A stretch of DNA of 64,000 bases from UHGV virus genome UHGV-1493261. The stretch is one strand, 5' to 3'. The translations under genes and the position numbers were made by a program. Below the pieces are notes generated by a model. That model saw only the letters and a program-made list of their open reading frames with translations. It made no database searches and had not been told where the DNA came from. Below, one piece after another: positions 4,273 to 64,000 of the stretch; position 1 is the stretch's first letter, and each line of letters opens with the position of its first letter. Source of the DNA: a virus.

Positions 4273-4941
4273 ATGCAAGAGATCACTCTCTCCGAACGTA
4301 CACTTCAGTTGCTGGCCAACTTTGAGACCATCAACCCATCTATCGTTCTGACACCGGGCAAGATGCTGCGCAGTATTAATGATTCTTCTACTGTGATCGC
4401 CGTGGCGCAGATCGAAGAAGACTTCCCGTTTGAGTTCCCGATTCTGGACCTGACCAAACTTCTGGCCATCCAGCGCCTACCTTCCTTCAAAGGTGCCAAA
4501 GCCGAATTTCATCAGGACTACATCCTGTTGAAAGGTGAAAGCTCTCAACTGCAGTTCTGGCGCTCCGCCAAAGAACTGACTGTGGTCCCGGCCGACACCA
4601 TCGAACTGCCTTCCGTCGACTTTGAAGCGATCATCACTCCAGAGAAGATGAAAGAACTGACCCGCGCCTGTTCTACCCTCGGACACAAGACTGTGCGCCT
4701 GGTTGCTCAGGGTGGCAAAACACGCCTGGTTGCAACCACCACTACCCTAGACAACTCCAACAACTACACTGTTGAGCTGGGCGAAACCGCACTGCCGGAC
4801 TTCGTAATGCCGCTGGATGTTGCCAACCTGAAAATGATCGAAGGCAACTACACTCTGCGTGCATGTGCTGATCTACAGATGGTGAACTTCCAATCATCCG
4901 ACGCGACGATCAATTACTTCGTCGGCGCACAGATTGAGTAA
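4273..4941 (+). CDS. gp45: sliding clamp (gp45-like)
   Basis: 222 aa, GAGGA RBS. N-terminus LSERTLQLLANFETINPSIVL parallels T4 gp45 LSKDTTALLKNFATINSGIML. Immediately followed by the clamp loader genes. Confidence 0.75.
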   Translation: MQEITLSERTLQLLANFETINPSIVLTPGKMLRSINDSSTVIAVAQIEEDFPFEFPILDLTKLLAIQRLPSFKGAKAEFHQDYILLKGESSQLQFWRSAKELTVVPADTIELPSVDFEAIITPEKMKELTRACSTLGHKTVRLVAQGGKTRLVATTTTLDNSNNYTVELGETALPDFVMPLDVANLKMIEGNYTLRACADLQMVNFQSSDATINYFVGAQIE

Positions 4942-4961
4942 TCAATCTCCAGCCTGATGCT

Positions 4962-5000
4962 ATAATGTGTGGGCGGGGCGTTCCCCGCCTATTTGAAATG
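4962..5000 (+). promoter_or_regulatory. TATAAT / GC hairpin / ATTTGAAAT cassette upstream of gp44
   Basis: TGcTATAAT (4962-4967), hairpin GGGCGGGGCGTTCCCCGCC (4972-4990), TATTTGAAAT (4991-5000), then GAGG RBS and ATG 5022. Confidence 0.5.
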
Positions 5001-5021
5001 ATTCTTCTACACGAGGCTGAA

Positions 5022-6011
5022 ATGTCTAATATCACTATCGTTTCCGACCAGTACGCATGGGAAAACAAGTACCGCCCTGACAACCTGGACGAGATTATCA
5101 TCCCTCAAGACGTCCGCGCTAAAATCCATGGCTACATCACCAGCGGCAACGGCAACATCCCGTCTATGCTGTTCTACTCCCCTCAGCCTGGTACTGGCAA
5201 GACTACCTCTGCTCTGGCCGTGTGTAATGAAATCGGCTGTAAGCAACCACTGATGATCAACGCATCCCTGGACAACAGCATCGACGTTATCCGTGACCGC
5301 GTGATTCAGTACTCTACTGGTGTGAGTGTATTCGGTGGCCGCAAAGTCGTTATTCTCGACGAAGTAGAGCGTCTGTCTATGGCGGCACAGGAGTCGCTGA
5401 AGGGTATTGTGGAGAAAGTCTCCAAGAACTGTTCATTCATCCTGACCACCAACGCCAAGCAACGCGTGAACGAACCTCTGCGCTCTCGTTGCCGTGAAAT
5501 CGACTTTATCTGGAACGAGCAGGAAGCACTGGAAGTTCAGAACAAGTTCTGTTTGCGTTGCGTTGAAATCCTCCGCGCCGAAGGTGTTGAGTTCGTTCCC
5601 CAGGTTCTGGCTGCTATCGTTAAGCGCCATTTCCCCGATAATCGCCGCATTATGGGCACCCTGCAGGATAACGTCACCACCTATGGCAAGATTGACGAAC
5701 GCGCCCTGGCTGTGCTGAAAGCAGGCGATATGGGCACGCTGGTCGGTATGCTGAAGACTGAAGATTGGGCTGGTATGAAGCAATGGGTGACTGACAACCA
5801 GAACTACATCACAGAAGACTTCTATTCTCGCTTCTTCCAATTCTGTGTACCACAGGATAAAGAGAAGCCGACGATGGTTAAGAACGAGTCTATCCCAGAT
5901 CTGGTCTGTGTCTGTGGTCAGTCACAAATCGAACATCGTCAGGTGGGTGATGTGTGGCTTCACGCCGTTTATTTCCTGACCAACGTCATGCTCAACATTA
6001 AGTGGAAGTGA
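5022..6011 (+). CDS. gp44: clamp loader large subunit (gp44-like AAA+ ATPase)
   Basis: Start at ATG 5022 (GAGG RBS) inside track ORF 4965..6011. ENKYRPDNLDEIIIPQD vs T4 EQKYRPSTIDECILPAF; Walker A GTGKTT; ILDE Walker B; SRC-like SRCREI. Confidence 0.85.
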   Translation: MSNITIVSDQYAWENKYRPDNLDEIIIPQDVRAKIHGYITSGNGNIPSMLFYSPQPGTGKTTSALAVCNEIGCKQPLMINASLDNSIDVIRDRVIQYSTGVSVFGGRKVVILDEVERLSMAAQESLKGIVEKVSKNCSFILTTNAKQRVNEPLRSRCREIDFIWNEQEALEVQNKFCLRCVEILRAEGVEFVPQVLAAIVKRHFPDNRRIMGTLQDNVTTYGKIDERALAVLKAGDMGTLVGMLKTEDWAGMKQWVTDNQNYITEDFYSRFFQFCVPQDKEKPTMVKNESIPDLVCVCGQSQIEHRQVGDVWLHAVYFLTNVMLNIKWK

Positions 6012-6015
6012 TACG

Positions 6016-6438
6016 ATGGCCGCTCCTGCACTGTTCGATTTCCGCAACGCGCTCATGGAAACGAAGGAAGATATCCTCCGCACGACTGACCCAGAAGTGT
6101 TGAAGGCATTTGACCCGTTCATGATCCGGCGCTGTTTTGCTCAGAGTAAGGACACACTGGTAACGGCAGAGCAGTTGAATAAACTGCACGCCATCACGCC
6201 ATGGATGCAATGGTCATATGCCTTTTACACCATTCCGGCTCGGAAACGCTACGACAAATGGTCTAAGAAAGGTCCGATTGATCCTGACGTGAAGTTACTC
6301 TCAGAGTACTTCTACATCAGCATGGAGAAGGCATCGGAGTACGTCCGTTTCTTGCCGAAGGAAGTTCTGGCCGAGATACGCGAGAAGATGGGACGTACTG
6401 AGCTGAACGCCAAAGCGAAACCGCGCAAGGCTAAGTAG
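6016..6438 (+). CDS. gp62: clamp loader small subunit (gp62-like)
   Basis: 140 aa directly after gp44. ARKRYDKWSK resembles T4 gp62 RGKRYGKWAK. Synteny 45-44-62-regA. Confidence 0.65.
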   Translation: MAAPALFDFRNALMETKEDILRTTDPEVLKAFDPFMIRRCFAQSKDTLVTAEQLNKLHAITPWMQWSYAFYTIPARKRYDKWSKKGPIDPDVKLLSEYFYISMEKASEYVRFLPKEVLAEIREKMGRTELNAKAKPRKAK

Positions 6439-6467
6439 TTCAAACTATTGTAAAAGGGGAATGAGTC

Positions 6468-6932
6468 ATGGCGCGTAATACGCTAGACATATTGAATATT
6501 TCAGCAGTCAACGATGAGGCCAGCATCGTTGATTGTATGGTTGAAGTTCAATTGAACCAAGATCGGCCAGGTATATTCCTGGGGATCAAGGAAACACTGA
6601 GCCGGATTGGGGTAAACACGCGCCAAGAGCCGAATACTCTGTATCAGACTTGCCATATTCTTCATAAGTGTGGTAAGTATTATATCGTCCACTTTAAGCA
6701 TCTATTTATGCTGGACGGGCATTACAACGGATTTAACCGCGAAGATGTCCTGAGGATGAACCGAATCATCAAGCTGCTGGAGCAGTGGAACATGGTGAAG
6801 GTCATTCATCCCGAGCAGGTCACCGAAGCCGCCGATATGTCACGCATTAAAGTGGTTAAACACGATCAGGTTCCTGAATGGAAGCTGGTCCCAAAATACA
6901 TTATCCGGCCCACAAAGGCCAAAAGCGAATAA
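6468..6932 (+). CDS. regA: RegA-like translational repressor
   Basis: LYQTCHILHKCGKYYIVHFKHLFMLDG and EWKLVPKY match T4 RegA LYQSCHILQKKGLYYIVHFKEMLRMDG and EWKLVPKY. AAGGGGAA RBS. Confidence 0.8.
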   Translation: MARNTLDILNISAVNDEASIVDCMVEVQLNQDRPGIFLGIKETLSRIGVNTRQEPNTLYQTCHILHKCGKYYIVHFKHLFMLDGHYNGFNREDVLRMNRIIKLLEQWNMVKVIHPEQVTEAADMSRIKVVKHDQVPEWKLVPKYIIRPTKAKSE

Positions 6933-6948
6933 CTGGAGTCTCTAAATC

Positions 6949-7821
6949 ATGACAACTACATTTTCTAAGAACGTGAATCTGAATCTGGCTTTCGGTAATG
7001 CAAAGGGCGACGTCACATCGCCTGACTTTGGTAAGATCCGCAATCAGGCGAAACTGGTGCTGGAAGAGACCCGCGAACTGCTGGAAGCGGCGTTCTTTGA
7101 CCATGATGTGAAGGTGGAATTCACTGCAACTCCACGAGTCCTGAAAGAACCTGTTGTTGTCGACATCAAAGGCATTATGCGCCAGATCATGGATGCCCAT
7201 GGCGACATCACAACAGTCAACGACGGTGTGGCTCATATTGCTGGTTTCGACGGTGACGAATGCCTACAGCGCGTGTATGCCTCTAACATGAGCAAGTTCG
7301 TCCGCAATGAAGGTGAAGTTGTTCCAGCGCTGGAGTATTACTACAACAAAGGCTTCCCACGCGAAAGTCTACGCATCGAAGGGGAATTCCCTCAGGCATG
7401 CATCAAAGTGGTGGACACCATCACCGTCGACGGCAAAGAATACCCGGCTGGCAAGTTCCTGAAGAACATGGCAACCTTCAAAGAGCCTGACTTCTCTGAT
7501 ATGTTGACCACCGAGCCTAAGCGCCAGATCACCGAAATCATTCTGACGGGCACGGCTACCCCAGGTCGACTCAGTTCTAACGAACATGCTGGTGTTGCCT
7601 ACGCGCCGTTCGATTTTATTGACGAGATCGTAGGATACACCAAGATGGGCTTCCAGGCGTTCTCTGGTGAAACAATCGAGAGTTATATTCCTGTGTTTGT
7701 TTTCAATGAAGACAACTTCCCAACTCTGCCGTTGATCTGGGGTGAATGGAAAGCCAACGTTCGTATCTATGTGTCCAGCCCAGTACAATCATCTATCACC
7801 CAACTGACCCGTATCGATTAA
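6949..7821 (+). CDS. hypothetical protein; possible N-terminal MazG-like NTP pyrophosphohydrolase motif
   Basis: 290 aa, TGGAG RBS. N-terminal KLVLEETRELLEAAFF resembles the MazG EExxELxEA helix. Remainder unassigned. Confidence 0.5.
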   Translation: MTTTFSKNVNLNLAFGNAKGDVTSPDFGKIRNQAKLVLEETRELLEAAFFDHDVKVEFTATPRVLKEPVVVDIKGIMRQIMDAHGDITTVNDGVAHIAGFDGDECLQRVYASNMSKFVRNEGEVVPALEYYYNKGFPRESLRIEGEFPQACIKVVDTITVDGKEYPAGKFLKNMATFKEPDFSDMLTTEPKRQITEIILTGTATPGRLSSNEHAGVAYAPFDFIDEIVGYTKMGFQAFSGETIESYIPVFVFNEDNFPTLPLIWGEWKANVRIYVSSPVQSSITQLTRID

Positions 7822-7843: not shown

Positions 7844-7876
7844 AACAGAGGCTATAATGGCCTCTGTTTTCTTATT
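7844..7876 (+). terminator. rho-independent terminator with TATAATG loop
   Basis: ACAGAGGC / loop TATAATG / GCCTCTGT followed by TTTCTTATTCT, after the stop at 7821. Confidence 0.6.
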
Positions 7877-7889
7877 CTGTGAGGATACC

Positions 7890-9086
7890 ATGAAAGACAA
7901 AGCCCTGGACGTCCCGTACTGCGGTGTCCGCGAAGAAAAGATAAAGTCGGCCAAACCGGTTCTCAGTCCGACCCATACCCGCCTGTCTTACGAATGGATG
8001 CGCGATCGTTATCAGATCCACGTCAAGAAGGACGTCCAGCGCCTTCCTGCTCCTTGGACTGATAATCCCATATTACGCCAGGTTAAATTCTGTAACGTCC
8101 GGAGAGAGCACGACAGGCAGTCTCTCAACCTGATCAATAACATTGTCAAGAACGATGCTCTGGGCATGGCAGACAAGATGTTCAACTGCGTGTTGTTCCG
8201 CATGTTCAACCTCTGGGATCCGATCCAGGCTATCGGCGGCGCGATGACGATCAAAGAATTCGCCAAGATCAACCTCGATGCAACCCGCGAACGACTTCAG
8301 AAGTTCGAGGCCGACGGCGGTAAAGTATTCACCAATGCCTTCAACACGGGCGGTCTGAAGCAATGCCTGGCTTTCCCTGAGATGGTTGTCAACCACAAGG
8401 AGCAGCGCTTCGGTGGGATGATGGTGAATCTGATCTGTAAAGACGGTTCAACCCAGAACATGGATTATAAAGAAGCCAAGGCGATAGCCGAAGCAGAGCC
8501 GGACTTCTACACCATCGAAGGTTGGGAACCGTACATGCCAATGCGTGTCATCCGCTCCCTGAAGGCATTCGTCAACAAGTATCCAAATTATTTCCATGAC
8601 CTGCTGCGCCTTGATACGCCTTTGGAAGTATACCAGCGCATGTACGACGACATCGAAGGGCTTGGTCCATTCCTGGCCTATCAGATCTGGGTTGATTTCA
8701 CGTACATTCCTGGATATCCTTTCAGTGAGAACCACTTCACGGTTGCTGGACCAGGCTGTCGCGCAGGGATTGATCTTCTGTTCCTGAACAAAGACGGTAT
8801 GACCCACGAAGAATGCATCTTCTGGTTGCGGGACAATCAGGACGCAGTTTATGGTCCTCTTGGGTATAACAGGGAAGAATTTTGGTCTGAGGAAGAGCCT
8901 TGGGATCGCCATTTAAATATAATGGCAGGAGAAAATATGTTTTGTGAACTTCAGAAATATACCCGTTGTGTAGAGGCCATACAGCAAGGTAAAAAACCGC
9001 GCGGGAAGGTTGGATACGATGGGGAAGGACGACCTAAAGCGACGACATCTGGTTCTAAAAACCTACTAAATTTATTTAAAAAGTAA
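7890..9086 (+). CDS. hypothetical protein (aromatic-rich, about 399 aa)
   Basis: Start at ATG 7890 (GAGGA RBS) downstream of the terminator hairpin at 7844-7876. Track ORF 7857 begins inside that hairpin. No recognised motif. Confidence 0.55.
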   Translation: MKDKALDVPYCGVREEKIKSAKPVLSPTHTRLSYEWMRDRYQIHVKKDVQRLPAPWTDNPILRQVKFCNVRREHDRQSLNLINNIVKNDALGMADKMFNCVLFRMFNLWDPIQAIGGAMTIKEFAKINLDATRERLQKFEADGGKVFTNAFNTGGLKQCLAFPEMVVNHKEQRFGGMMVNLICKDGSTQNMDYKEAKAIAEAEPDFYTIEGWEPYMPMRVIRSLKAFVNKYPNYFHDLLRLDTPLEVYQRMYDDIEGLGPFLAYQIWVDFTYIPGYPFSENHFTVAGPGCRAGIDLLFLNKDGMTHEECIFWLRDNQDAVYGPLGYNREEFWSEEEPWDRHLNIMAGENMFCELQKYTRCVEAIQQGKKPRGKVGYDGEGRPKATTSGSKNLLNLFKK

Positions 9087-9145: not shown

Positions 9146-10075
9146 ATGTTTTACGAATTATTGATTTCTAAAGGCGGTAAACCGCATTTTATCAAGAAGT
9201 ATTTGAGGATGATTCAATCTTTCAAATATTCTGATGGTGACTACACTGAATTACACCACATCCTTCCCAAGAGCATGTTCCCTGAATATTCTAAAGATAA
9301 GATCAATTTGGCAAGACTTACTGGCAGGCAACATTATCTTGCCCATGTGTGTTTGGCCTTGGCTTTCCCGAATTCTGATATGGTATATGCTGTTATTTTG
9401 ATGAGCCGTGGGGGTAGGTATACACCAACGGGTATAAAATTTAATTCTCACCTTTACGAAAAGTTAAGGAAAGAATTTGGACAAAGAATATCCAAACTCA
9501 CAAAGGGTGTCTCTAAATGCGTCGGGGCAAACAACCCAATGTATGGGAGAAGAGGAAAGAATAATCCCCAATATAGATATAAGAGAACTCCAGAGCAAGT
9601 CAAGAAAATTACCAAAGGATTGATGAAAATCCATGAAAGGATGGCTTCTGATCCTGAATATAAAAGGCGGGTTTTAGAGAAACGCCGCGCCAACATGGAT
9701 TTAGAACAATTTTCTGAACGTGCCAGGAAAGCTAAACTTGGGGAACTTAATCCAAATCATGGCAAAGATATTACCAACACGTTTACCCCTGAACAACGAC
9801 AGAAACAAATAGAAGGTATTAGAAAAGCCCATTTATCAAAAATGCCCTGGGAGAAACCGCGTTGGTCTGATGAAAAGGACATGTATTGGGCGAAAGCTGA
9901 TAAATTCCTTGAAGCAATGAAAACAATGAAAAGAGCGGAAGCCCTCATGCATGTGTACGGAACAAAGGATTTGAAGGCTTTTAATGCGACAAACAGCATT
10001 ATCGAACGTTTCAATAGAGGGTGGGAACCTTTGAAATGTCCTAAATGGACAGAACGATACGGTTCTTCTGAATAA
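9146..10075 (+). CDS. HNH homing endonuclease with NUMOD-like repeats
   Basis: ELHHILPKSMFPEY...NLARLTGRQHYLAHV (HNH motif); NPMYGRRGKNNPQY and NPNHGK repeats. Visibly AT-rich codons compared with flanking genes. Free-standing between conserved genes. Confidence 0.8.
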   Translation: MFYELLISKGGKPHFIKKYLRMIQSFKYSDGDYTELHHILPKSMFPEYSKDKINLARLTGRQHYLAHVCLALAFPNSDMVYAVILMSRGGRYTPTGIKFNSHLYEKLRKEFGQRISKLTKGVSKCVGANNPMYGRRGKNNPQYRYKRTPEQVKKITKGLMKIHERMASDPEYKRRVLEKRRANMDLEQFSERARKAKLGELNPNHGKDITNTFTPEQRQKQIEGIRKAHLSKMPWEKPRWSDEKDMYWAKADKFLEAMKTMKRAEALMHVYGTKDLKAFNATNSIIERFNRGWEPLKCPKWTERYGSSE

Positions 10076-12684: not shown

Positions 12685-13059
12685 ATGAAACCTGTTATAT
12701 GTGATTACTGTGGCCTCCCAGCCGAATTCGTCGGTGGTGATGTTCTCTACCCTCATCGCCCTGACCTCCGTAATCTGAAGTTCTGGGTTTGCACCCCGTG
12801 TGATGCCCGTGTCGGTTGCCATGCCCATGGCGGCGGCAGACAACCTTTGGGAAGGATGGCGAATGCCGCTCTCCGTGCCGAGAAGCAAAATGCCCATAGA
12901 TCGTTTGACCCATTGTGGAAAAGCGGAGAGAGGAGCAGGAGCGACGCTTACAGTTGGCTGGCGCATAAGCTGGGGATAAAGAAGCGTGAGTGTCATATTG
13001 GTTTGTTCGATATCGACATGTGCCGTAAAGTAGTGGAGGTCTGTAAACAAATATCATAG
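12685..13059 (+). CDS. zinc-finger protein (Cys-rich)
   Basis: Start at ATG 12685 inside track ORF 12658. CDYCG...CTPCDARVGCH Cys/His cluster. Weak RBS. Confidence 0.45.
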   Translation: MKPVICDYCGLPAEFVGGDVLYPHRPDLRNLKFWVCTPCDARVGCHAHGGGRQPLGRMANAALRAEKQNAHRSFDPLWKSGERSRSDAYSWLAHKLGIKKRECHIGLFDIDMCRKVVEVCKQIS

Positions 13060-13067
13060 GATAACAC

Positions 13068-13940
13068 ATGACAAATCGTACTGGCATAAAACTCACTCCT
13101 GAAGTCCTGAAGTCACATATCGCTGAGGTGATTTACGAAGACCGCGAAGTCGGCGGTCACCGGGCTATCACTTGTCATTTCAAGATGGATAACGGCTTCG
13201 TCGTTCACGGCACCAAGCCCAGCACATCCATAGACCCGGCCAACTTCGATGAAGCCCTGGGCAAAGAGATTTCCTACAATAACACCTTCGACCAGCTGTG
13301 GCAGCTGGAGGCGTACCGGGCGCTTGTTGAACAAGATCTGTTGGCCAAAGCCACGGAAACGGCAGAGATACAGATCGATCAATACGCTGTTGAACGTAGC
13401 GCCCTCTGTCCGGCCTATCACCTCGGCTTCAATGTGATGGTTCAGGAAGTGATGTTCAAAGCGGAAAATGGTGAGCGCTTCTTGGCATCTTTCGTTTGTG
13501 GGCCGGATGACATGGAACTTGTTGTTGAATCTCACAACGCCAAATCTCGTAAGGCTGTTAGTGATTTCCTGCGCGCCAACTCCAAACTCGATCTCACTTA
13601 TTCGCCATTGGTTCTGCGCATCGCCAAGATTTGTCATGAAGCCAACCGCGCATACTGCAAGTCTATTGGTGACGACTCTCAACTGCCTTGGGAACAATCT
13701 CCGGCCTGGCAGCGTGAGAGCGCTTGCAAAGGTGTTATCTTCCATCTCACTGGTGATCGTAAGCCCAGCGAATCGCATGAGAGATGGATGGCGGAGAAGG
13801 AGTCTGAGGGATGGGTGTATGGCCCAGTCAAAGACCCTCAGACCAAGCAACACCCTTGCATGGTTCCGTATGGAGAACTCCCGGTACAACAACGCTCCAA
13901 AGATTATATTTTCAAATCCATTGTAGACTCCTTTAAATAA
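13068..13940 (+). CDS. RyR-domain protein
   Basis: C-terminal HERWMAEKESEGWVYGPVKDPQTKQHPCMVPYGELPVQQRSKD matches the ryanodine-receptor (RyR) repeat pattern (W..GW.YG...D...K.HP.L.PY..L). N-terminal 200 aa unassigned. Confidence 0.6.
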   Translation: MTNRTGIKLTPEVLKSHIAEVIYEDREVGGHRAITCHFKMDNGFVVHGTKPSTSIDPANFDEALGKEISYNNTFDQLWQLEAYRALVEQDLLAKATETAEIQIDQYAVERSALCPAYHLGFNVMVQEVMFKAENGERFLASFVCGPDDMELVVESHNAKSRKAVSDFLRANSKLDLTYSPLVLRIAKICHEANRAYCKSIGDDSQLPWEQSPAWQRESACKGVIFHLTGDRKPSESHERWMAEKESEGWVYGPVKDPQTKQHPCMVPYGELPVQQRSKDYIFKSIVDSFK

Positions 13941-13974
13941 GCTCTGAATAATATTTCAACCTGTCAATAATATA

Positions 13975-14010
13975 ATGCCCGGTTATATTCAATCGGGCAT
14001 TTTTATTATA
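13975..14010 (+). terminator. rho-independent terminator
   Basis: ATGCCCG / 12-nt loop / CGGGCAT then TTTTATTAT. Preceded by TATAAT at 13971-13976. Confidence 0.55.
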
Positions 14011-14090
14011 TTAATTGGCATCAATACCGCCTGTCGTAATATAATAGTCCCATGTTGAAATAGTTGGGAAATATAACTCACGAGAGCCTG

Positions 14091-14267
14091 ATGACCGACA
14101 ACAAATTAAAACGCGCCGGACTTGATTGTCTTGACAATTCATTCCGCCCCAGTGATGTTCTGGTCGCCCAAATGGAAAACAACCGGGATTTCATTGAAAC
14201 TATGCTGGAGAACGCCGACGCGAACTCCAAACACTCCAAAGCCCAAAAAGGTCAAAACGATGATTGA
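14091..14267 (+). CDS. small hypothetical protein (58 aa)
   Basis: ATG 14091 after GAGAG; charged helical peptide; stop overlaps the start of the vWA gene by 8 nt. Below the 60-aa cut-off from this start. Confidence 0.3.
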   Translation: MTDNKLKRAGLDCLDNSFRPSDVLVAQMENNRDFIETMLENADANSKHSKAQKGQNDD

Positions 14268-16461
14268 GTCATTAACATTTAAGAATGCGGTTGCGACCGT
14301 CGCGCCGTCTAACCATGTAATCGTTGTGGATATCTCCGGTTCCATGTATCGTTCACTTCCAGAAGTCCGTAAGCATCTGAAGGAGAACCTGCCTTCCCTG
14401 GTGAAACCCGAAGATACTGTGAGCATCCTTTACTTTTCATCTCGCGGTGATTTCGGAACGGTATTTGCCGGACGTCAGATCGGTGTCGCATCTGACCTGA
14501 GCGAGCTGAATAAGCTGATCGACCGTTTCCTGCAACCATCCGGCTGTACTGGTTTTGTTGAGCCATTGAAACTGGCGATGGATACTGCGCGCGGCCTGAA
14601 GAAACCCGGCTACGTCAACAACCTGGCATTCATGACCGATGGTTATGACAACTGCTGGCGCTCCAATGAAATCCTGGATACCGCCGAAAAACTTCCTTCC
14701 GCGTTCGACAACGTTACATTCATCGAATACGGCTGGCACTGTAACCGTGAACTGCTGGCGCAGATGGCCGAACGCTCTGGTGCAACCCACGTTTTCGCCG
14801 AAGGTCAGACTGAATATCAGACCGAGCTGGAAAACGTGCTGAAGTCATCAGTGCCGAAGGTGAAAGTTGATGTCCCAGTCATCTACACCCATGCCATCTA
14901 CGTCGAAAACGGTGTGGCAACAGTACTGGCGGTGCAGGACGATGACGCTCACCCGGTCGGTTATGTGAGCATCCCTGAGAGCGTCACCAAGCTGTGGGTT
15001 GTAAACCCTAACATGATCGACCAGATGGATAGCCTGACGGACATCCAGGCGGCATACGTGCTGGCGTTCTACGGCGTACACACTATGGACGCAGATCTGG
15101 TTTGGGCTGCGCTGAAGAAGACGGGCGACGTTCGCTTCATCAAACAGTACAGCAACTGCTTCACCAAGCAGGACTACTCCAACATCAAGAACGATCTGAC
15201 CCAGGCCATCGTTGATGACCAGCTGCGCGGCGTTGACGGTATTGACTATGACCTGGTTCCAGCTGAAGATGCGACCACCGTCGTTGATGTGCTGACGTAC
15301 CTGGCTGAAGCTGGTGTGCCTGTTGCTACCAAGCATCCGATGTTCTCCTATAAGAGTATCGGGCGCGGTACGGTTCAGAAAACCGACGACACCGAAGACA
15401 AGCTGGCAGAACAGATCGCGAATGCTCAGTCCAAAGAAGAGCGTAAAGCCCTGGCTCTCAAGCTGGCAGAACACGAAGAGTGGAACCCGACGTTCGAACC
15501 TACCAACGACCTGGGTGTTGTGCCAATCAGCGATTTGGTCTATAATTCCGAACGCCCGAACATCAGTGTGCGTACAATTCAACACGGTACTGTGGCTGTG
15601 CCTGAATTCGCACAGAAGAAGTTTGGCCTGCCTGAAGAACTGGATACTTTCCAGTGGCGCAACTACACCATCGTCAAAGATGGTATCATCAACGTGAAGA
15701 CCCTGCCGTTCAAGGCTGATATCGAAGTTGTACAGAAGCTGATCGAAATGGGCGTCCACGTGTTTGGTGGTCCGGAAGTGTTCATCTTGAACCTGGAAAG
15801 CGTACCGCTGGTCAACCGCGCCATGGTCAAGAACATCAGTGCTGCTCAGTTCTTTGCGGATAATGTCCGTCTGGAAGCCCTGAAAGGCAAGCAGAAGGTG
15901 CTGAAGTTCTATCGAGACGCCCTGGTTGGTAAGGGTAACGCCAAAGGCCTGGCAGTACAGTACGGCGCTGAGGCGGCCGAGTTCCTGTCCTCCTATGGCA
16001 TCCGCGATTACGGCTTCTCACCGAAGACTGAGACCAAAGAGTCTACCGACTTCTACATGAGCCGTGAGCTGAACGTGAAGATCGCTGGCGCTTCTTCTCT
16101 ACCGTCTATCGCAGCGGTACAGAAGAAGATAGCCGAGAACAAGAAACTCAATGCTGGTGACTTGTTCATCGCCAATGCGCTGAAGGAGTACGAAGCATTC
16201 GTGAAGTCTCCTATGATCACTGCCGTGCCTGAAGCCTTACAGAAACATCTGATCGAAAACTGGATCGACGCTGCTGCCAAGGCGGCCATCACCGAAGTCC
16301 GTGCTCTGAACAAGACGCTGTCTAAAGTGGTGTATGGTATCGTTGCTGGTCATGGCTGGTTCACCGACCTCGACCTGGAAGAGTCCACCATGGAAGTTGA
16401 AGTGGATGGGGTGAAGTACAAGGTCACTGCCGAACTGGCAGAGAAAGAAATCAAAATCTAA
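14260..16461 (+). CDS. vWA-domain protein (MIDAS motif), 733 aa
   Basis: Start at ATG 14260 (AAAGG RBS) inside track ORF 14122. N-terminal VIVVDISGSM...ILYFSSRGD...FMTDG fits a von Willebrand A fold with DxSxS MIDAS. About 500 aa C-terminal unassigned. Confidence 0.7.
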   Translation: MIESLTFKNAVATVAPSNHVIVVDISGSMYRSLPEVRKHLKENLPSLVKPEDTVSILYFSSRGDFGTVFAGRQIGVASDLSELNKLIDRFLQPSGCTGFVEPLKLAMDTARGLKKPGYVNNLAFMTDGYDNCWRSNEILDTAEKLPSAFDNVTFIEYGWHCNRELLAQMAERSGATHVFAEGQTEYQTELENVLKSSVPKVKVDVPVIYTHAIYVENGVATVLAVQDDDAHPVGYVSIPESVTKLWVVNPNMIDQMDSLTDIQAAYVLAFYGVHTMDADLVWAALKKTGDVRFIKQYSNCFTKQDYSNIKNDLTQAIVDDQLRGVDGIDYDLVPAEDATTVVDVLTYLAEAGVPVATKHPMFSYKSIGRGTVQKTDDTEDKLAEQIANAQSKEERKALALKLAEHEEWNPTFEPTNDLGVVPISDLVYNSERPNISVRTIQHGTVAVPEFAQKKFGLPEELDTFQWRNYTIVKDGIINVKTLPFKADIEVVQKLIEMGVHVFGGPEVFILNLESVPLVNRAMVKNISAAQFFADNVRLEALKGKQKVLKFYRDALVGKGNAKGLAVQYGAEAAEFLSSYGIRDYGFSPKTETKESTDFYMSRELNVKIAGASSLPSIAAVQKKIAENKKLNAGDLFIANALKEYEAFVKSPMITAVPEALQKHLIENWIDAAAKAAITEVRALNKTLSKVVYGIVAGHGWFTDLDLEESTMEVEVDGVKYKVTAELAEKEIKI

Positions 16462-58185: not shown

Positions 58186-58217
58186 GGGCTGCTATAATAG
58201 CAGCTCCTTTTGTTTTA
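58186..58217 (+). terminator. rho-independent terminator with ATAAT loop
   Basis: GGGCTGCT / ATAAT / AGCAGCTC then CTTTTGTTTTAT. TATAAT spans the stem-loop junction. Confidence 0.55.
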
Positions 58218-58229
58218 TCGGAGCAGTTT

Positions 58230-58889
58230 ATGTCCTACTCCCTGAAGGGGCTGATGAAGCGCCCCGTCCACACATTCTTTAAACCACCCGTCGTAAAGGG
58301 GATCTACCCAGCACGAGGGCAAATCTACTACGTCAAAGGCTCCAATGGTAGCGGTAAATCCACTGTGCCGTCTCAGCTGGCGGAGAGGGATCCTCAGGCG
58401 TATGTCGTGACCCATAACGGCAAGGTAATGCTGACTGTCTGTCCTTCGTTCAACGTGGTCTGTATCGGTAAATATGACAAGTCGAAGTCCAAGGGGGTTG
58501 ATTCCCTGAAGGACACTGAGCAGATGTTGTTCGCGTTGTCTATTGCTGACCAACCAGAATACTTGAAATATGATGTGATTTTCGAAGGTATCATTCCATC
58601 CACATTATTGAGTTCTTGGATCCCCCGTCTGACACGCCCACCACGTGAATTGGTTGTGCTCTTTATGGACACTCCTCTTGAAACGTGTATCACCCGCGTT
58701 AAATCACGTAACGGCGGTGTGGACTTCAATGAAAGTCTGGTGGTCGAGAAGTGGGAGAGAGTTCATGACCATCGTCAACGACATAAAGACTTGTTCCCTA
58801 CGGTGGCTGCGGGTATGATGAAGTCTCACGGCCTAACAGTAGACCAGGCTGTGATGGCATTCCTCTGTCGTGATTTTGGGAGTATCTGA
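58230..58889 (+). CDS. P-loop NTPase / putative kinase
   Basis: Walker A GSNGSGKST; hydrophobic strand then EG (VIFEG). Immediately upstream of and overlapping the TS-fold gene. Confidence 0.55.
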   Translation: MSYSLKGLMKRPVHTFFKPPVVKGIYPARGQIYYVKGSNGSGKSTVPSQLAERDPQAYVVTHNGKVMLTVCPSFNVVCIGKYDKSKSKGVDSLKDTEQMLFALSIADQPEYLKYDVIFEGIIPSTLLSSWIPRLTRPPRELVVLFMDTPLETCITRVKSRNGGVDFNESLVVEKWERVHDHRQRHKDLFPTVAAGMMKSHGLTVDQAVMAFLCRDFGSI

Positions 58890-59935
58890 TGGAAATCAAA
58901 GCAATAAACAACAATGACATGCTGAAACAGGCTGTCTTGGCTATCCGTGAATTCGGGATCGAATCTGATCCTGGTAATGCTGAAATCAATACTGATAGCA
59001 CCCGCTTCCTTGATGGCGTGACCATAACCGTCGCCGACATCCGTGACCGCTGGCTATCCGTTGAAGGTCGTAACTCATCGGCTATCGCCGCCATCGGCGA
59101 GACCTTCTGGGTTCTGTCCGGGCGCGATGACGTTCGCTTCCTGTCCCGCGTGTTGCCCCGCGCCGCCAACTTTTCCGACAACGGCCACACATGGCGAGCT
59201 GCTTATGGTCCGCGTCTGTACGCTCATGGTCAGCTGGATAGCGTTATCAACCGCCTGCGCAAGAATCCAAACACTCGCCAGGCGTACCTCACCATCTATG
59301 ATCCGGCTCTGGATTCAGATGCTGGTCTGGCGAAGTTCAGTGAGAGTGGCGAAGCAAAGACCAAGGACATGGTGTGTAACCTGGCTCTGTTGTTCGCCAT
59401 CGTTGAAGGTCGCCTGAACCTGACGGTTATCAATCGCTCACAGGATGTTCTGTGGGGTATGAGTTCAATCAACTTCATTGAGTTCTCTATTCTTCAGGAA
59501 GTGATTGCTCGGGTGTTGGATGTTGACGTCGGCCAGTACAAGCTCTTCTCCAACAATCTTCATTACTACAACAATGAAGTCAGCCAGAAGCAGCTGGGCA
59601 AGATCACGAAGGACACCAAAGTAGAAGCTGGGTTCATCAACTCCATGATCCACTTCACGAACGTGACCAACCAGAACCATATCCGCGATCTGTTCACTGG
59701 CGTGCTTGTTCATTGTGACTTCGGTAGCCCTTGGGAAACTGTTGTTGCCTTCCTGAAGGAGTATGATGCGGATCGCGGTCTGATTGTGCAGATGGCATAC
59801 TGCCTGCACTGCAAATTGAATAACAAGCTCATTAACCTGGACCTGATTCAGGATCATGGATTGAACACCGCGCTCACCCATTCTCCGGTTGACCGCAAGA
59901 TCGTTGATCCTAAGTTCCTGGAAGGTGTAGTATGA
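58889..59935 (+). CDS. thymidylate synthase-fold enzyme (TS or pyrimidine hydroxymethylase)
   Basis: NPNTRQAYLTIYDP (TS NPxSRR..xxxWNP-like) and MVCNLALLFAIVEGRLNLTVINRSQDVLWGMSSINFIEFSILQEVIA paralleling TS PPCHALCQFYV...[25 protein letters not shown]. 348 aa, longer than ThyA or T4 gp42. Confidence 0.75.
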   Translation: MEIKAINNNDMLKQAVLAIREFGIESDPGNAEINTDSTRFLDGVTITVADIRDRWLSVEGRNSSAIAAIGETFWVLSGRDDVRFLSRVLPRAANFSDNGHTWRAAYGPRLYAHGQLDSVINRLRKNPNTRQAYLTIYDPALDSDAGLAKFSESGEAKTKDMVCNLALLFAIVEGRLNLTVINRSQDVLWGMSSINFIEFSILQEVIARVLDVDVGQYKLFSNNLHYYNNEVSQKQLGKITKDTKVEAGFINSMIHFTNVTNQNHIRDLFTGVLVHCDFGSPWETVVAFLKEYDADRGLIVQMAYCLHCKLNNKLINLDLIQDHGLNTALTHSPVDRKIVDPKFLEGVV

Positions 59936-60501
59936 TGTACCCAAATCTTGAATTCTTTACGGGGCGCAAGCGTTCCGGTAAGGACTTCTGTTTGGAGTCC
60001 CTCATCAGATATCACCAACTACAGGGTGATATGGACATCCAGCGCCTTTCGTTCTCAGATGAACTGCGCCGGGTTGCCAACTTCATCTATCCATGGCTGC
60101 CAGCGGAGGTAGAGGATGCCGTGAAGGACGTTCCTTACGACCACCCTGATAACCCCAAGGGCTTAACCCCACGGCAGATCTGGCTTCATCTAGGCAGCGA
60201 TACGGGCTTACGTTACGTACAACCCGATCTGTTCCTGGCGTTCTTCAAGCGCTTCCAGCTTCCTCTGGTAGAGCAGAACCCCCACGTCCATTATATCGTG
60301 AGCGATCTGCGTACCCCTCAGGAATATGAATGGGCGCTGAGTACGAAATGTCCTATCACCCGTATTTCAAAGGCCGATCGTGCTGGTATCATAGAGGACG
60401 ATATAGAGGCTTTCATTGACCAAATGAAAGTGGACTACGAATTCCTCAATCCATTTGATGGTTGGGAACCGTTCGTTAAATTCTACGGAGAACGTAAATG
60501 A
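59932..60501 (+). CDS. deoxynucleoside monophosphate kinase (gp1-like)
   Basis: N-terminal FFTGRKRSGKDF matches T4 gp1 FLSGVKRSGKDT. 189 aa. ATGA overlap with the upstream gene. Confidence 0.6.
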   Translation: MMYPNLEFFTGRKRSGKDFCLESLIRYHQLQGDMDIQRLSFSDELRRVANFIYPWLPAEVEDAVKDVPYDHPDNPKGLTPRQIWLHLGSDTGLRYVQPDLFLAFFKRFQLPLVEQNPHVHYIVSDLRTPQEYEWALSTKCPITRISKADRAGIIEDDIEAFIDQMKVDYEFLNPFDGWEPFVKFYGERK

Positions 60502-61052
60502 TCACAGCAGGGCATATCAAAAGCCTGCTCGAACTCCAAAAGGCCACTAACGTGGCCTACTTTGGGGAAGAGTGGAAGAATGTATGGAGTCAGAACGCAG
60601 TTATCAACTCCATCTATCGTGAGTGGGCAGAGTTCCTTGATGAAACCACCCGTGACTGGAAGGTCTATGGCAACGACATCGGGTTTGACCATACGAACGC
60701 AGTTTATGAACTGGTGGACGTGGTACACTTCATGTTGTGCTTCATCCTTGTGGACCGCACCAAAGGTGAGATCGAAGAAGAATTTGAAGTCCTGAGTAAT
60801 CGCGAATTCACCCCATCTGCTTTGGGTGTTGTAGGGCATCGCAATGTTACGTACCGCCTTGGGCAATTCATGAACGATCCTTGCGTTGAGACTCTCATGT
60901 TCTTCCTGTCGTCTGCGTGTTCTTATATGGAGATCGACATTGAGACTTACATACTGGCGCACAAACGCAAGAACGATCGCAATCGTCTGCGTGCTTCTGG
61001 TGGTGCGGATTACGACAAGTCCGCAGAAACCCCTCTGACCCTGGAGTTCTAA
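60498..61052 (+). CDS. dCTPase/dUTPase-like all-alpha NTP pyrophosphatase (gp56-like)
   Basis: YELVDVVHFMLCF matches T4 gp56 FELVDIFHFVLNMF. EWAEFLDE acidic helix typical of MazG-like enzymes. Confidence 0.5.
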   Translation: MITAGHIKSLLELQKATNVAYFGEEWKNVWSQNAVINSIYREWAEFLDETTRDWKVYGNDIGFDHTNAVYELVDVVHFMLCFILVDRTKGEIEEEFEVLSNREFTPSALGVVGHRNVTYRLGQFMNDPCVETLMFFLSSACSYMEIDIETYILAHKRKNDRNRLRASGGADYDKSAETPLTLEF

Positions 61053-61594
61053 TGTTTACAGTCGTCGTTTCATACCATGCGGAGAACGCTGCTCAGGCAT
61101 CCTCCAAATTCGCCGAGCACATCATCGGCGGCGGCCATAATGTATTCCTTACCGAATACAACAGGCCTGTTAAACCGGGCGACGGTCTTTCGGCGACTGT
61201 TACGCATAAGATCGCCAGCGAGCAACCAGAGTCTCTGTTCAGAATGATCGAAGAGTATGCCAGTGGTGGCATCAAGATACCAGATGAACTGGTAGACGTT
61301 TATTTTGAAGGCTCGATCTATTATATCCACGCTATGCCAAAGGATGTAACCATTGAACAGATGATGTATATCCTGAATATAGCACTGAACACTGCGTGCA
61401 TCAACCGCACGAACTACAACAATCTGCGCAATATGTACCTAACCGACCGACATAATGAAGCACCGTCACCTATTGAGACGATGTCCCTGAAGAGCATCCA
61501 AGAGGCGGTTAACATTTTGTCCCAGAAGGTTATGGGTGTAGACTTACTAACGACGATTAACAACAAAGAGGAAGTGAAATGGCCAGTTCATTAA
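61052..61594 (+). CDS. hypothetical protein
   Basis: 180 aa. TAATG overlap with the upstream gene. Overlaps the uvsX start by 16 nt. Confidence 0.45.
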   Translation: MFTVVVSYHAENAAQASSKFAEHIIGGGHNVFLTEYNRPVKPGDGLSATVTHKIASEQPESLFRMIEEYASGGIKIPDELVDVYFEGSIYYIHAMPKDVTIEQMMYILNIALNTACINRTNYNNLRNMYLTDRHNEAPSPIETMSLKSIQEAVNILSQKVMGVDLLTTINNKEEVKWPVH

Positions 61595-62664
61595 TGGACC
61601 GCATGCTGAAGGTTGCTAAGAAACACGATGACCAGGCTTCAGTGCTGTCCCAATCAGACGCTCTGGAACCGTCTATCATCTGTTCTACTGGTATTCCCCT
61701 GATCGACATCGCATGGTCTGGGCGTATTGACGGCGGCCTGATCTCCGGTATCAAGATGATGGTGGGTGATTCCCGTACCTTCAAAACGATGTTCGGTCTG
61801 GTGGACGTCAAGGCGTACATGGACAAGTTCCCTGACGCTATCTGTGTATTTGCTGACTCGGAAAAGGGTGCCAACGCCGATTACTGGACCTCTATGGGCA
61901 TTGACATGGACCGCGTCCTGTACGTACCGATCGACAACGTTGAACAGACCAAGATCCGCTTGCTGCAGATCCTACAGGAAGTCAAGAAAGGCGACCATGT
62001 TATAATCTTCATCGACTCTATCAGCCAACTTCCCTCCACCAAGGAAGTTGAAGATGCGATCAAAGGGAACGACACTCAAGACATGACCCGCGCCCGTGCC
62101 CTCAACAGCTTCTGGCGTGTCATGACTCCCGAAATCAACAGCAAAAATCTCGTGTGTGTTTGGATCAACTCCTATTACGATGAGATCGGCAACCAATATG
62201 CCGAGCCTAACATCAAAGGTGGCAAACAGGGCTTCTTATCCTCCAACTTGATCTGGTTTATCACCCGTTCTCAGGTGAAGGAAGACAAAGATCTGCTGGG
62301 CTGGAACTTCAACATAAGCATCATGAAAGGTCGCCATGTCAAAGAGAAAGCCAAGCTCCCTGTGACGGTACTGTACAACGGTGGTATTGATCGCTGGAGC
62401 GGCCTGCTTGAGATCGCTCGTGCTCTGGGTTATGTTGATATGCCGTCTTCCGGCTGGTATGTGCGTACAGCCAAGGGTGGTTTCGATCCTGAGAAGGAAA
62501 AGAAATATCAGAAGCGTCAGATGGGTGATGATTTCTGGTATCCGCTGCTGGAGAATGTCAACTTCGCCGATGACGTGAAGAAAATGTTCGGTGTTTCTAA
62601 CGGTACTGTTATGCCTGCTAACATGCTGGAGCAAATGGACCATGTTATTAACACAAGCGAATAA
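61579..62664 (+). CDS. uvsX: UvsX-like RecA-family recombinase
   Basis: GDSRTFKT (T4 GPSKSFKS), VIIFIDSISQLPSTKEVEDA (T4 VVVFIDSLGNLASKKETEDA), DMTRARALNSFWR, VKEKAKLP. GAGGAAG RBS. Confidence 0.9.
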   Translation: MASSLMDRMLKVAKKHDDQASVLSQSDALEPSIICSTGIPLIDIAWSGRIDGGLISGIKMMVGDSRTFKTMFGLVDVKAYMDKFPDAICVFADSEKGANADYWTSMGIDMDRVLYVPIDNVEQTKIRLLQILQEVKKGDHVIIFIDSISQLPSTKEVEDAIKGNDTQDMTRARALNSFWRVMTPEINSKNLVCVWINSYYDEIGNQYAEPNIKGGKQGFLSSNLIWFITRSQVKEDKDLLGWNFNISIMKGRHVKEKAKLPVTVLYNGGIDRWSGLLEIARALGYVDMPSSGWYVRTAKGGFDPEKEKKYQKRQMGDDFWYPLLENVNFADDVKKMFGVSNGTVMPANMLEQMDHVINTSE

Positions 62665-62971
62665 CAGTGGAGGGGGAGGAGACTCCCCCAATAACTACAC
62701 AATCATCGACCCTGGTGCTGATCAGCTGGCGATTATCAAGATCACTTCTGGCAAATTCCGTGGAGTTCAATTCCGGTTCGGCAAGGTGGCCATCAACGAA
62801 GTGGACGGCGAACCCCGCCTGTCTTTCGTGACTGATATATTGAAGAAACCATTGCGTCTGATGTTTGTGAATTTGAAAGAAAATGACTTGTTCACTGAGG
62901 TGTCAGGGGATATCCTTGTAGATCTCATGCAGCGTAATGCTCAGGAATATAATAAATTTTTGGTGGGGTAG
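62642..62971 (+). CDS. hypothetical protein (ambiguous; may instead be leader of the helicase gene)
   Basis: ATG 62642 overlaps the uvsX 3' end. Would encode 109 aa with a Gly-rich N-terminus whose codons form the GC hairpin at 62672-62689. Sits where T4 gene 40 lies between uvsX and 41. Confidence 0.25.
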   Translation: MLLTQANNSGGGGDSPNNYTIIDPGADQLAIIKITSGKFRGVQFRFGKVAINEVDGEPRLSFVTDILKKPLRLMFVNLKENDLFTEVSGDILVDLMQRNAQEYNKFLVG

Positions 62972-62977
62972 TGGCCA

Positions 62978-64000
62978 ATGTTACTCGAATCTGTCGTGCT
63001 TTCACAGTTGATTTACAATGAAGATTACCAAAGAAAGATCCTGCCGTACCTGAAAGCCGATTATTTTGACAACGAAGGCGAAAAGGTCATCTTTGGTCTG
63101 ATTGACAGTTATACCTCAGAGTACAATGCCCGCCCGTCTGTCGAAGCACTATCTATAATTCTTGAACGGACAAAGCTGAACGAATATGTGTTTGACCAGG
63201 CGGTATCTGCCCTGGAGAACATCAACGACAACACCTTCAATGAAGAGTGGCTGGCGAAGGAAACCGAGGCTTGGGCGCGGCAAAAGGCCGTACACAACGC
63301 AATCAAGACCGCCGTCAACATCTACGGTGACGAGAAGCGCAAGGACGAGATGAACAACATCCCGACCATGTTGCAGGAAGCCCTGGCGATCCGGTTTGAT
63401 TCATACCTCGGTCACATCTATTGGGAGATGGCGGCAGAGCAGTATGACCACATGAACTCCAACGAGGCCAAGATCCCGTTCGCAGTTGAGATATTCAATA
63501 AGGCGACACGTGGTGGCGTTGGTAAGAAGACACTGAACATCGTAACAGGCGCGATCAACGCAGGTAAGACCACAACGCTGATTGACCTGACCGCAGGGTA
63601 CTCGGAGCAGGGGCTGAACGTCTTTGTCTTCACCCTTGAAGTGGCTGAGAACGTCTGGCGACACCGCCTTGATGCCCGTATCATGCGTCGCGACTTTGAG
63701 TCTTTAGAGAAACTCACAAGGCACGAGTATATTGCAACGATAGAGAAGCTCCGCAGTCGCCAAGATGGTGCGCCCAAGGGTGATATCGTCATCAAGGAAT
63801 ATCCTTCCGGTACTGGACACACAGGTTTATTCCGCCGCGATATCCTTGAGTACATCCAGGCAACTGGTCGTGCTCCCGATGTTATCGTTATTGACTATCT
63901 TGGCGAAGCTGCTTCCTCGCGCCTGCCTGCCCACCTGATGCAGAACACGAACGTCTATTACACGTCTGTGGCTCGTGAGTTTCGTGCGCTGGGATTTGAG
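62978..64000 (+). CDS. gp41: replicative DNA helicase (gp41-like, DnaB family), 3' truncated by window
   Basis: Open to window end (341 codons). GAINAGKTT Walker A, VIDYLG Walker B-like, overall layout matching T4 gp41. Not in the ORF track because no stop is reached. Confidence 0.85.
   Translation, partial: MLLESVVLSQLIYNEDYQRKILPYLKADYFDNEGEKVIFGLIDSYTSEYNARPSVEALSIILERTKLNEYVFDQAVSALENINDNTFNEEWLAKETEAWARQKAVHNAIKTAVNIYGDEKRKDEMNNIPTMLQEALAIRFDSYLGHIYWEMAAEQYDHMNSNEAKIPFAVEIFNKATRGGVGKKTLNIVTGAINAGKTTTLIDLTAGYSEQGLNVFVFTLEVAENVWRHRLDARIMRRDFESLEKLTRHEYIATIEKLRSRQDGAPKGDIVIKEYPSGTGHTGLFRRDILEYIQATGRAPDVIVIDYLGEAASSRLPAHLMQNTNVYYTSVAREFRALGFE

Follow-up and report, generated by a model that had tools for sequence, protein, structure and literature searches.

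A four-gene module in a 64-kb stretch of DNA from the virus genome UHGV-1493261 (the window, by which we mean the whole stretch analysed) very probably encodes the front end of the ViI-type pathway by which the Ackermannviridae hypermodify thymidine, with 5-(2-aminoethoxy)methyl-deoxyuridine (5-NeOmdU) as the expected product. The module spans positions 58230-61052 of the + strand. An original prediction, made from the sequence alone, had recognized a nucleotide or base-modification module here, and that reading holds; the analogy it put first – to the hydroxymethyl-dCTP pathway of T-even phages – proves wrong, and the alternative it mentioned, hypermodified-thymine phages, pointed in the right direction, as the orthology of the first gene to a 5-hydroxymethyl-deoxyuridine (5-hmdU) DNA kinase (5-HMUDK), gp67 of phage ViI, indicates. 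The four + strand open reading frames (ORFs) lie exactly where they had been placed, and all six of the motifs quoted for them were located in ORF1-ORF4:

58230-58889, + strand: ORF1, 219 amino acids (aa), predicted 5-hmdU DNA kinase
58889-59935, + strand: ORF2, 348 aa, predicted dUMP 5-hydroxymethylase
59932-60501, + strand: ORF3, 189 aa, predicted T4 gp1-type dNMP kinase
60498-61052, + strand: ORF4, 184 aa, predicted all-alpha NTP pyrophosphohydrolase

The family matches of these genes are well beyond chance, both in Pfam (E=1.6e-108 for ORF1, 1.5e-15 for ORF2 and 5.8e-9 for ORF4) and in PHROG (5.7e-181 for ORF2, 3.3e-47 for ORF3 and 5.8e-40 for ORF4). For ORF1 the Pfam match is to PF18748, the 5-hmdU DNA kinase family: it reaches 361.1 bits (cutoff 27) and is full-length, residues 14-208 covering positions 1-195 of the 196-position profile, while other P-loop Pfam families match at noise level only. 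The Walker A motif GSNGSGKST stands at aa 37-45. Over all 219 aa the protein is 87.7% identical to ViI gp67 (YP_004327432, orf00067), which occupies the same place in the gene order and phosphorylates 5-hmdU in DNA in vitro; M6 gp54, ViI gp243, PhiW-14 gp37 and SP10 gp186 have the same kinase activity (PMC8989533). A more distant relative is the P-loop ORF S218_24 of Yuavirus S218 (30% identity, E=1.4e-14), encoded three genes upstream of that phage's dUMP hydroxymethyltransferase gene; phmmer against the PDB gave nothing useful for ORF1. We regard ORF1 as a predicted 5-HMUDK and ortholog of gp67, whose target would be the hydroxymethyl group of hmU within DNA. The P-loop protein had been cast as an NTPase, or as an actor resembling a dNMP kinase; the PF18748 match and the identity to gp67 instead predict a kinase that acts on hmU in DNA, and the same match speaks against an unrelated ATPase.

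The protein encoded by ORF2 has the thymidylate synthase (TS) fold and is, as had been remarked, longer than ThyA and T4 gp42. Its best PHROG family is phrog_3676 (5.7e-181), followed by phrog_5131 (1.8e-57), the best family of SPO1-like and M6-like enzymes, and by the generic TS family phrog_160 (2.9e-25), in which gp42 and ThyA are found. It scores 57.5 bits against the Pfam model Thymidylat_synt (PF00303) and at most 57 bits against the NCBIfam thymidylate synthase equivalogs, all far under their cutoffs (108-427). The quoted motifs are NPNTRQAYLTIYDP at aa 126-139, MVCNLALL at aa 161-168 and RSQDVLWGMSSINFIEFSIL at aa 183-202. For the active site, ORF2 was aligned with E. coli ThyA, T4 gp42, MilA (the CMP 5-hydroxymethylase of mildiomycin biosynthesis), the ViI protein, an SPO1-group (Okubovirus) homologue and an M6-like (Yuavirus) protein annotated 'deoxyuridylate hydroxymethyltransferase'. 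Cys163, Arg183, Asp186, His225 and Tyr227 correspond to C146, R166, D169, H207 and Y209 of the E. coli enzyme, and Glu71 and Tyr106 are likewise conserved. At the base-specifying position ORF2 has Asn195, as E. coli has Asn177, whereas T4 gp42 (D179) and MilA have Asp. Across 61 homologues of ORF2, with identities down to 23%, the catalytic Cys is invariant and every one of the 61 has Asn at the 177 column.

Inspection of the residues that distinguish hydride transfer from hydroxymethyl release, a check proposed at the outset, shows that the hydride-transfer-linked His147 and Trp80 of ThyA are both absent from ORF2. Asn164 takes the place of His147, as an Asn does in the SPO1-like and M6-like enzymes, and ORF2 has a gap at the column of Trp80. 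Leu143 of ThyA becomes Asp in ORF2 and in every aligned hydroxymethylase, and the C-terminal closing segment of ThyA is swapped for a helical domain of ~100 aa (~aa 245-348). Judging from the literature on ThyA and on the T4 dCMP hydroxymethylase, loss of His147, Trp80 and the C-terminal segment would lead to hydration of the methylene rather than its reduction.

Fold and phylogeny agree with the residues. The best sequence match of ORF2 in the PDB is MilA (7.8e-18), with ThyA at 1e-8 or worse. The AlphaFold2 model of ORF2 (predicted local distance difference test, pLDDT, 94.2) gave MilA as its best Foldseek match, with template modelling scores of 0.73/0.79 over ~346 columns that include the C-terminal domain, compared with ~265 columns for ThyA. 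MilA (PDB 5b6d, 5jnh) is thus the closest solved structure and has the C-terminal helical domain in common with ORF2; it differs in its CMP substrate, in the Asp at the base-specifying position, and in belonging to bacterial secondary metabolism. The phylogenetic placement that had been called for was carried out as a neighbour-joining tree: ORF2 falls not within ThyA but with the hydroxymethylases. It groups with the proteins of ViI and other Ackermannviridae; a wider clade joins this group to MilA and to the enzymes of SPO1-like and M6-like type, and excludes both T4 gp42 and E. coli ThyA. The protein is 74.8% identical to the thyA-like orf66 of ViI and is the sole TS homologue both in the window and in Escherichia phage AV101, the top match to the module (see below). 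Because Asn195, the tree placement on the hydroxymethylase side, the MilA fold match and the PHROG membership agree, ORF2 is assigned to the uracil-specific hydroxymethylase branch as a predicted dUMP 5-hydroxymethylase.

The calls of ORF3 as T4 gp1-like and of ORF4 as T4 gp56-like stand with the TS-fold call. ORF3 belongs to phrog_139 (3.3e-47), as does T4 gp1 (1.8e-65); its P-loop GRKRSGKDF lies at aa 11-19, where GRKRSGKD aligns with GVKRSGKD of T4, and the protein is 90% identical to ViI orf65 'dnk'. A phmmer search of ORF3 against the PDB found no match. We take ORF3 to be a putative T4 gp1-type dNMP kinase that would convert 5-hmdUMP to 5-hmdUDP. ORF4 scores 36.9 bits against PF08761 dUTPase_2 (cutoff 22.9) and belongs to phrog_173 (5.8e-40), the family of T4 gp56. 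ELVDVVHFML lies at aa 71-80, and the pairs E42-x-x-E45 and E71-x-x-D74 align with both acidic pairs of the C. jejuni dUTPase 1w2y; identity to ViI orf63 is 61%. ORF4 is accordingly described here as a predicted all-alpha NTP pyrophosphohydrolase of the dimeric dUTPase / T4 gp56 family, with a putative metal-binding ExxE...ExxD motif. Since direct BLASTP against the T4 proteins is marginal (E=0.06 for ORF3 and 0.08 for ORF4), profile families were needed for both assignments.

Taken together with the published ViI biochemistry, the genes suggest a pathway of seven steps. (1) In the nucleotide pool, ORF4 would hydrolyse dUTP, perhaps also dTTP, to the monophosphate, and dUMP would come in addition from dCMP through a phage dCMP deaminase encoded elsewhere. 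(2) Cys163 of ORF2 would attack C6 of dUMP, and the methylene group from 5,10-methylene-tetrahydrofolate would be hydrated, not reduced, giving 5-hmdUMP. (3) ORF3 would make 5-hmdUDP, which the host NDP kinase would turn into 5-hmdUTP. (4) The phage DNA polymerase would place 5-hmdU opposite A. (5) On the DNA, ORF1 would move the gamma-phosphate of ATP to the 5-hydroxymethyl of some of the hmU, so that the resulting 5-phosphomethyl-deoxyuridine (5-PmdU) carries a leaving group. (6) A gp247-type aGPT-Pplase2 transferase would swap that phosphate for serine. (7) A gp226-type decarboxylase dependent on pyridoxal phosphate (PLP) would decarboxylate the serine adduct to 5-(2-aminoethoxy)methyl-deoxyuridine. 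For ViI, step 5 (gp67), step 6 (gp247), step 7 (gp226) and the chemistry of the DNA have been demonstrated (PMC5889632, PMC8989533), and 5-NeOmdU replaces ~40% of T in ViI and CBA120 (PMC11721090). What the present analysis contributes to the steps is orthology, synteny, active-site residues and fold; from these we infer the substrates of ORF2, ORF3 and ORF4, and the operation of steps 6 and 7 in this phage. It had been held that the modified base could not be decided from sequence: with orthology taken into account it largely can, 5-hmdU being the predicted intermediate and 5-NeOmdU the expected product.

The ViI system comprises gp67 and the adjoining thyA-like, dnk and dUTPase-like genes, together with gp160, gp226, gp243 and gp247 (PMC5889632, PMC8989533). 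Resemblance of the window to ViI (Vi01) is close: the order DNA end protector ... 5-HMUDK, TS-like, dnk, NTP pyrophosphatase (NTP-PPase), ACT-like, uvsX is shared (in ViI three small genes separate the DNA end protector from gp67), and protein identities from ORF1 to ORF5, the ACT-like gene, are 88, 75, 90, 61 and 56%. A pair of genes far upstream of the module is also kept:

6949-7821, + strand: MazG-like nucleotide pyrophosphatase, ortholog of ViI orf161 (phrog_2144, E=4.5e-130; 58% identity), directly upstream of the next gene
7857-9086, + strand: aGPT-Pplase clade 1 homologue (aGPT-Pplase1), ortholog of ViI gp160 (PF18723 HMUDK_hel, E=9.7e-79; phrog_2396; 76% identity to gp160)

aGPT-Pplase1 is a predicted DNA-glycosylase-like helical enzyme of the thymidine-hypermodification set, among whose genes ViI gp160 is counted (PMC5889632). 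The MazG-like protein, for which neither a Pfam match nor a PDB match (phmmer) was found, is a candidate second enzyme for editing the dNTP pool. The search for modification enzymes that had been recommended thus gave a divided result: tblastn with the T4 alpha- and beta-glucosyltransferases found no significant homologue in the window or in AV101, and the window does hold a thymine-hypermodification gene in aGPT-Pplase1. The 64-kb window contains no ortholog of gp247 (the aGPT-Pplase2 serine:DNA transferase), gp226 (the PLP decarboxylase) or gp243 (the second kinase). AV101 carries orthologs of ViI gp226, gp243 and gp247 at 92, 85 and 90% identity; each of the ten nearest relatives has a gp247-type gene, 96-100% identical to the copy in AV101, and the PLP decarboxylase occurs in 344 phage records. 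Judging from relatives, the serine transferase and the PLP decarboxylase are to be expected in this genome also. Where the window differs from ViI is in lineage – Aglimvirinae/Agtrevirus-like, for which the papers searched give no chemistry, versus Cvivirinae/Kuttervirus – and in the clear divergence of the TS-like, NTP-PPase and ACT-like proteins.

The lineage follows from DNA comparisons. Megablast with the module matched 260 phage records, nearly all of them Ackermannviridae, and the top match was Escherichia phage AV101 (OQ973471; 99.0% DNA identity, 100% query coverage), a member of the Aglimvirinae that is classed as Agtrevirus (PMC10791037). ORF1 and ORF2 are 100% identical to their AV101 counterparts and ORF4 98.9%. 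The module is more similar to AV101 than the remainder of the window is: identity elsewhere is ~93-98%, blocks of the window compared with AV101 range from 91 to 98% with a few indels, and the best records for the first 25 kb are only ~95% identical. Since the module is 99.0% identical to AV101 but the rest of the window is more diverged, the assignment is to an Agtrevirus-like Ackermannviridae phage, as judged from nucleotide comparison. In AV101 the module genes are annotated differently from the reading given here, as hypothetical protein, putative thymidylate synthase and putative dUTPase.

Several points weigh against the proposed pathway. The genes of gp247 and gp226 type are expected outside the window from their presence in relatives. 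For ORF3 the likeness to T4 gp1 is at profile level only, the BLASTP match covering the N-terminal 33 aa, and the range of substrates that ORF4 would cleave to dNMP and PPi – dUTP, possibly also dTTP – is an extrapolation. For the ViI-type TS homologue, too, hydroxymethylase activity is predicted. To our knowledge, only SPO1-type enzymes have historically been assayed for such activity. The literature searched holds neither an assay of an Agtrevirus enzyme nor an analysis of virion DNA from this phage. Finally, ordinary thymidine of unexplained origin makes up ~60% of the T in ViI DNA (PMC5889632, PMC11721090).

Among other explanations, one concerns the gene that follows the module:

61052-61594, + strand: ORF5, 180 aa, ACT-like

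ORF5 matches PF24021 ACT_phage (E=7.4e-79) and phrog_3839, which has no assigned function, and is 55.6% identical to orf62, its positional counterpart in ViI. Its family comprises 13 clusters among 5.8 billion proteins, most of them from metagenomes; those with a named source are all from Ackermannviridae phages. The model (pLDDT 70) has a ferredoxin/ACT-like N-terminal half and a helical, poorly predicted C-terminal half; structure matches are weak (ACT/ferredoxin-like, E ~7e-3) and phmmer against the PDB returned nothing useful. ORF5 may belong to the module in an accessory or regulatory capacity. On this explanation the Aglimvirinae version is functionally unlike that of ViI, either with ORF5 as a small-molecule sensor or with a different modified base or level of modification. 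It may indeed differ, because the TS-like, NTP-PPase and ACT-like proteins are 56-75% identical, and aGPT-Pplase1 76% identical, to those of ViI; a sensor responding to, for instance, serine or a nucleotide might tune the amount of 5-hmdUTP or the fraction of hypermodified T. As a whole we consider such a functional departure unlikely.

An older view of ViI-like phages has the pathway end as in SPO1, with T replaced by 5-hmdU and not modified further. The pre-replicative genes are of the same kind as in hmU phages, the paper describing AV101 calls Agtrevirus genomes HMdU-substituted (PMC10791037), and the enzymes acting after the kinase lie outside the window. The likeness extends to ORF2, which has 32-33% core identity to the dUMP hydroxymethylases of the SPO1 group of Bacillus phages and of the M6-like Pseudomonas phages and shares their Cys/Asn/Asp/Asn signature and C-terminal extension, although it belongs to phrog_3676 and they to phrog_5131. 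SPO1, however, stops at hmU and lacks a 5-HMUDK, a gene that would be purposeless if hmU were the end product; M6 goes on to 5-(2-aminoethyl)-deoxyuridine (5-NedU) by a radical S-adenosylmethionine isomerase that ViI-like phages do not have. The aGPT-Pplase1 gene in the window, the gp247-type transferase of the ten nearest relatives and the PLP decarboxylase of AV101 are likewise at odds with an hmU end point, and 5-hmdU is not found in ViI virion DNA (PMC8989533). That hmU is the final base in this phage is therefore very unlikely.

We give an equally small chance to plain dTTP supply, in which ORF2 would be a true ThyA, ORF1 and/or ORF3 thymidylate or dNMP kinases, and ORF4 a dUTPase. This would suit the Pfam and NCBIfam matches, which are to thymidylate synthase models, the GenBank labels ('thymidylate synthase', 'thymidylate kinase', 'dUTP diphosphatase'), and the fact that most T of ViI DNA is unmodified (PMC11721090). 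Yet the NCBIfam scores fall short of every cutoff, ORF2 lacks His147, Trp80 and the closing segment of ThyA and has the hydroxymethylase-type Asp160, and the structures nearest to it are hydroxymethylases. ORF1, at 361 bits to the DNA-base kinase family, resembles a thymidylate kinase weakly (phrog_761, 5.6e-7). ORF2 as a bona fide ThyA is rejected on the sub-threshold NCBIfam scores, the active-site differences, the tree and the MilA fold match.

The T-even pathway to 5-hydroxymethylcytosine (hmC), with ORF2 as dCMP hydroxymethylase, ORF3 as hm-dCMP kinase, ORF4 as dCTPase and the hmC perhaps glycosylated, is more improbable again. The same logic is certainly present – a TS-fold hydroxymethylase, a gp1-type kinase and an all-alpha NTP pyrophosphatase at a similar site near uvsX – with ORF3 and ORF4 in the PHROG families of T4 gp1 and gp56 and with ORF2 standing to uvsX and the gp41 helicase gene as gene 42 does in T4. 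But the base differs: Asp specifies cytosine in gp42 and MilA, whereas ORF2 and all 61 relatives have Asn. The gp42 protein, moreover, has 246 aa, lacks the C-terminal domain and falls outside the ORF2 clade. T4 decorates its DNA with glucosyltransferases, of which the window and AV101 have no alpha- or beta-type homologue, whereas the ViI type uses a kinase, a transferase and a decarboxylase; the neighbouring ORF1 belongs to a kinase family specific for 5-hmdU DNA; and the DNA of ViI and CBA120 holds modified thymidine, not cytosine (PMC5889632, PMC11721090). The hmC reading is rejected on the strength of Asn195 and because neither the window nor AV101 has a glucosyltransferase homologue.

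That ORF1 is a small terminase subunit without any role in nucleotide chemistry can be dismissed almost entirely: phrog_800 'terminase small subunit' does match it (E=3.3e-68) and RefSeq so names this type of gene in ViI, SKML-39 and MK-13, but the ViI ortholog has been assayed as a 5-hmdU DNA kinase (PMC8989533), PF18748 scores ORF1 at 361 bits, the phrog_800 profile, 511 positions long, picks up the helical domain of aGPT-Pplase as well, as SP10-type kinase-Pplase fusions would predict, and in both ViI and AV101 another gene, beside that for the large terminase, is annotated as a T4 gp16-like small terminase. Because phrog_800 covers the aGPT-Pplase domain and the gp16-like terminase lies elsewhere, the terminase label on ORF1 is regarded as an artefact. 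The misannotation is spreading: the 5-hmdU DNA kinase is called 'terminase small subunit' in ViI (NC_015296, 38203-38865), SKML-39, MK-13 and RC-2014, and other records label the gene 'thymidylate kinase' or 'hypothetical'.

The preferred reading, a ViI-type front end leading to 5-NeOmdU, makes the module an ordinary copy of a known system whose chemistry and distribution, Agtrevirus included, were published in 2018-2021. The association of 5-HMUDK with a dUMP hydroxymethyltransferase has been described, and Table 1 of Lee et al. 2018 lists Agtrevirus SKML-39 and AG3, and also Dickeya phage LIMEstone, among the 5-HMUDK phages (PMC5889632); SKML-39 has 91% DNA identity to the module. A 2024 review describes the modification genes as conserved family-wide (PMC11721090). 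The window thus adds no new biology, and its main yield is the correction of annotations: from 'terminase small subunit', 'thymidylate kinase' or 'hypothetical' to DNA-base kinase, and from 'thymidylate synthase' to dUMP hydroxymethylase. Hypermodified thymidine makes the DNA of Ackermannviridae resistant to many restriction endonucleases, a property that bears on phage therapy and biocontrol and on the sequencing and cloning of these phages.

The arrangement of the module genes is compact. Junctions from ORF1 to ORF5 read, in order, TGATG, ATGA, ATGA and TAATG, with overlaps of 1, 4, 4 and 1 nt, and the chain of overlapping genes extends past 61052 through ORF5 to uvsX; given these start/stop overlaps, the genes are taken to be translationally coupled. 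The flanking features are:

58186-58206, + strand: predicted terminator-like hairpin (terminator scan), GGGCTGCTA-TAA-TAGCAGCTC, then the T-run CTTTTGTTTT
61579-62664, + strand: uvsX, overlapping ORF5 by 16 nt

The hairpin lies inside the 75-nt gap that precedes ORF1, and a TATAAT spans its loop; a promoter scan of this gap found no convincing sigma-70 promoter. A GGAG Shine-Dalgarno sequence stands 7 nt upstream of the ORF1 ATG (58230). Beyond the module, the order hydroxymethylase...uvsX, small ORF, gp41-type helicase (58889-63000) mirrors that of T4 (NC_000866, 20600-26200), where the genes are 42, beta-gt, segA, uvsX, 40 and 41. Because the two orders mirror each other, ORF2 occupies the position of T4 gene 42, though the base acted on differs.

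ORF2-like proteins form two allele groups, one ~90-100% and the other ~75% identical to the protein of the window. Escherichia O157 phage FEC14 (MG383452) belongs to the first group, at 94%, and ViI to the second, at 75%; PP35 (MG266157) is also in the match list. The allele groups may not track subfamily lines, which hints at exchange of the ORF2-type gene between Ackermannviridae lineages. More distant homologues have other neighbours. In Ralstonia phage RP13 a TS-like homologue adjoins the DNA polymerase gene, with no recognisable kinase beside it. The unrelated JGI contig Ga0376445_000038 (110 kb) encodes at 4428-7065 a TS-like homologue, 46% identical, directly after dUTPase_2 and AAA_28 P-loop genes, with a dCTP deaminase near by; this gene set suggests that the three-part logic also occurs outside the Ackermannviridae.

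The AV101 record shows a further irregularity of annotation. With ViI gp226 as query, tblastn aligned 394 aa at 92% identity to AV101 2306-3487 (+ strand); near 2267-3493 the deposited annotation has only a 903-nt CDS at 2591-3493 (+ strand) and an opposite-strand CDS of 294 nt at 2267-2560. The decarboxylase gene seems to have been shortened by the choice of start codon.

Elsewhere in the window, a 309-aa homing-endonuclease-like ORF (9146-10075, + strand; phrog_655, 2.1e-60, and also the HNH family phrog_12434) lies directly downstream of aGPT-Pplase1, and AV101 has an ORF of the same size. The 3.5-kb insert of AV101 with NAMPT and ribose-phosphate pyrophosphokinase genes (97338-100832) is absent from the window at 13050-14256; this insert varies among Agtrevirus phages (PMC10791037). 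In its place the window has, at 13068-13940, a 290-aa ORF with Phage_gp49_66 and RyR domains. The 779-aa protein encoded at 14122-16461 (+ strand), with an N-terminal von Willebrand factor A domain (PF00092, 5e-8), is kept in AV101.

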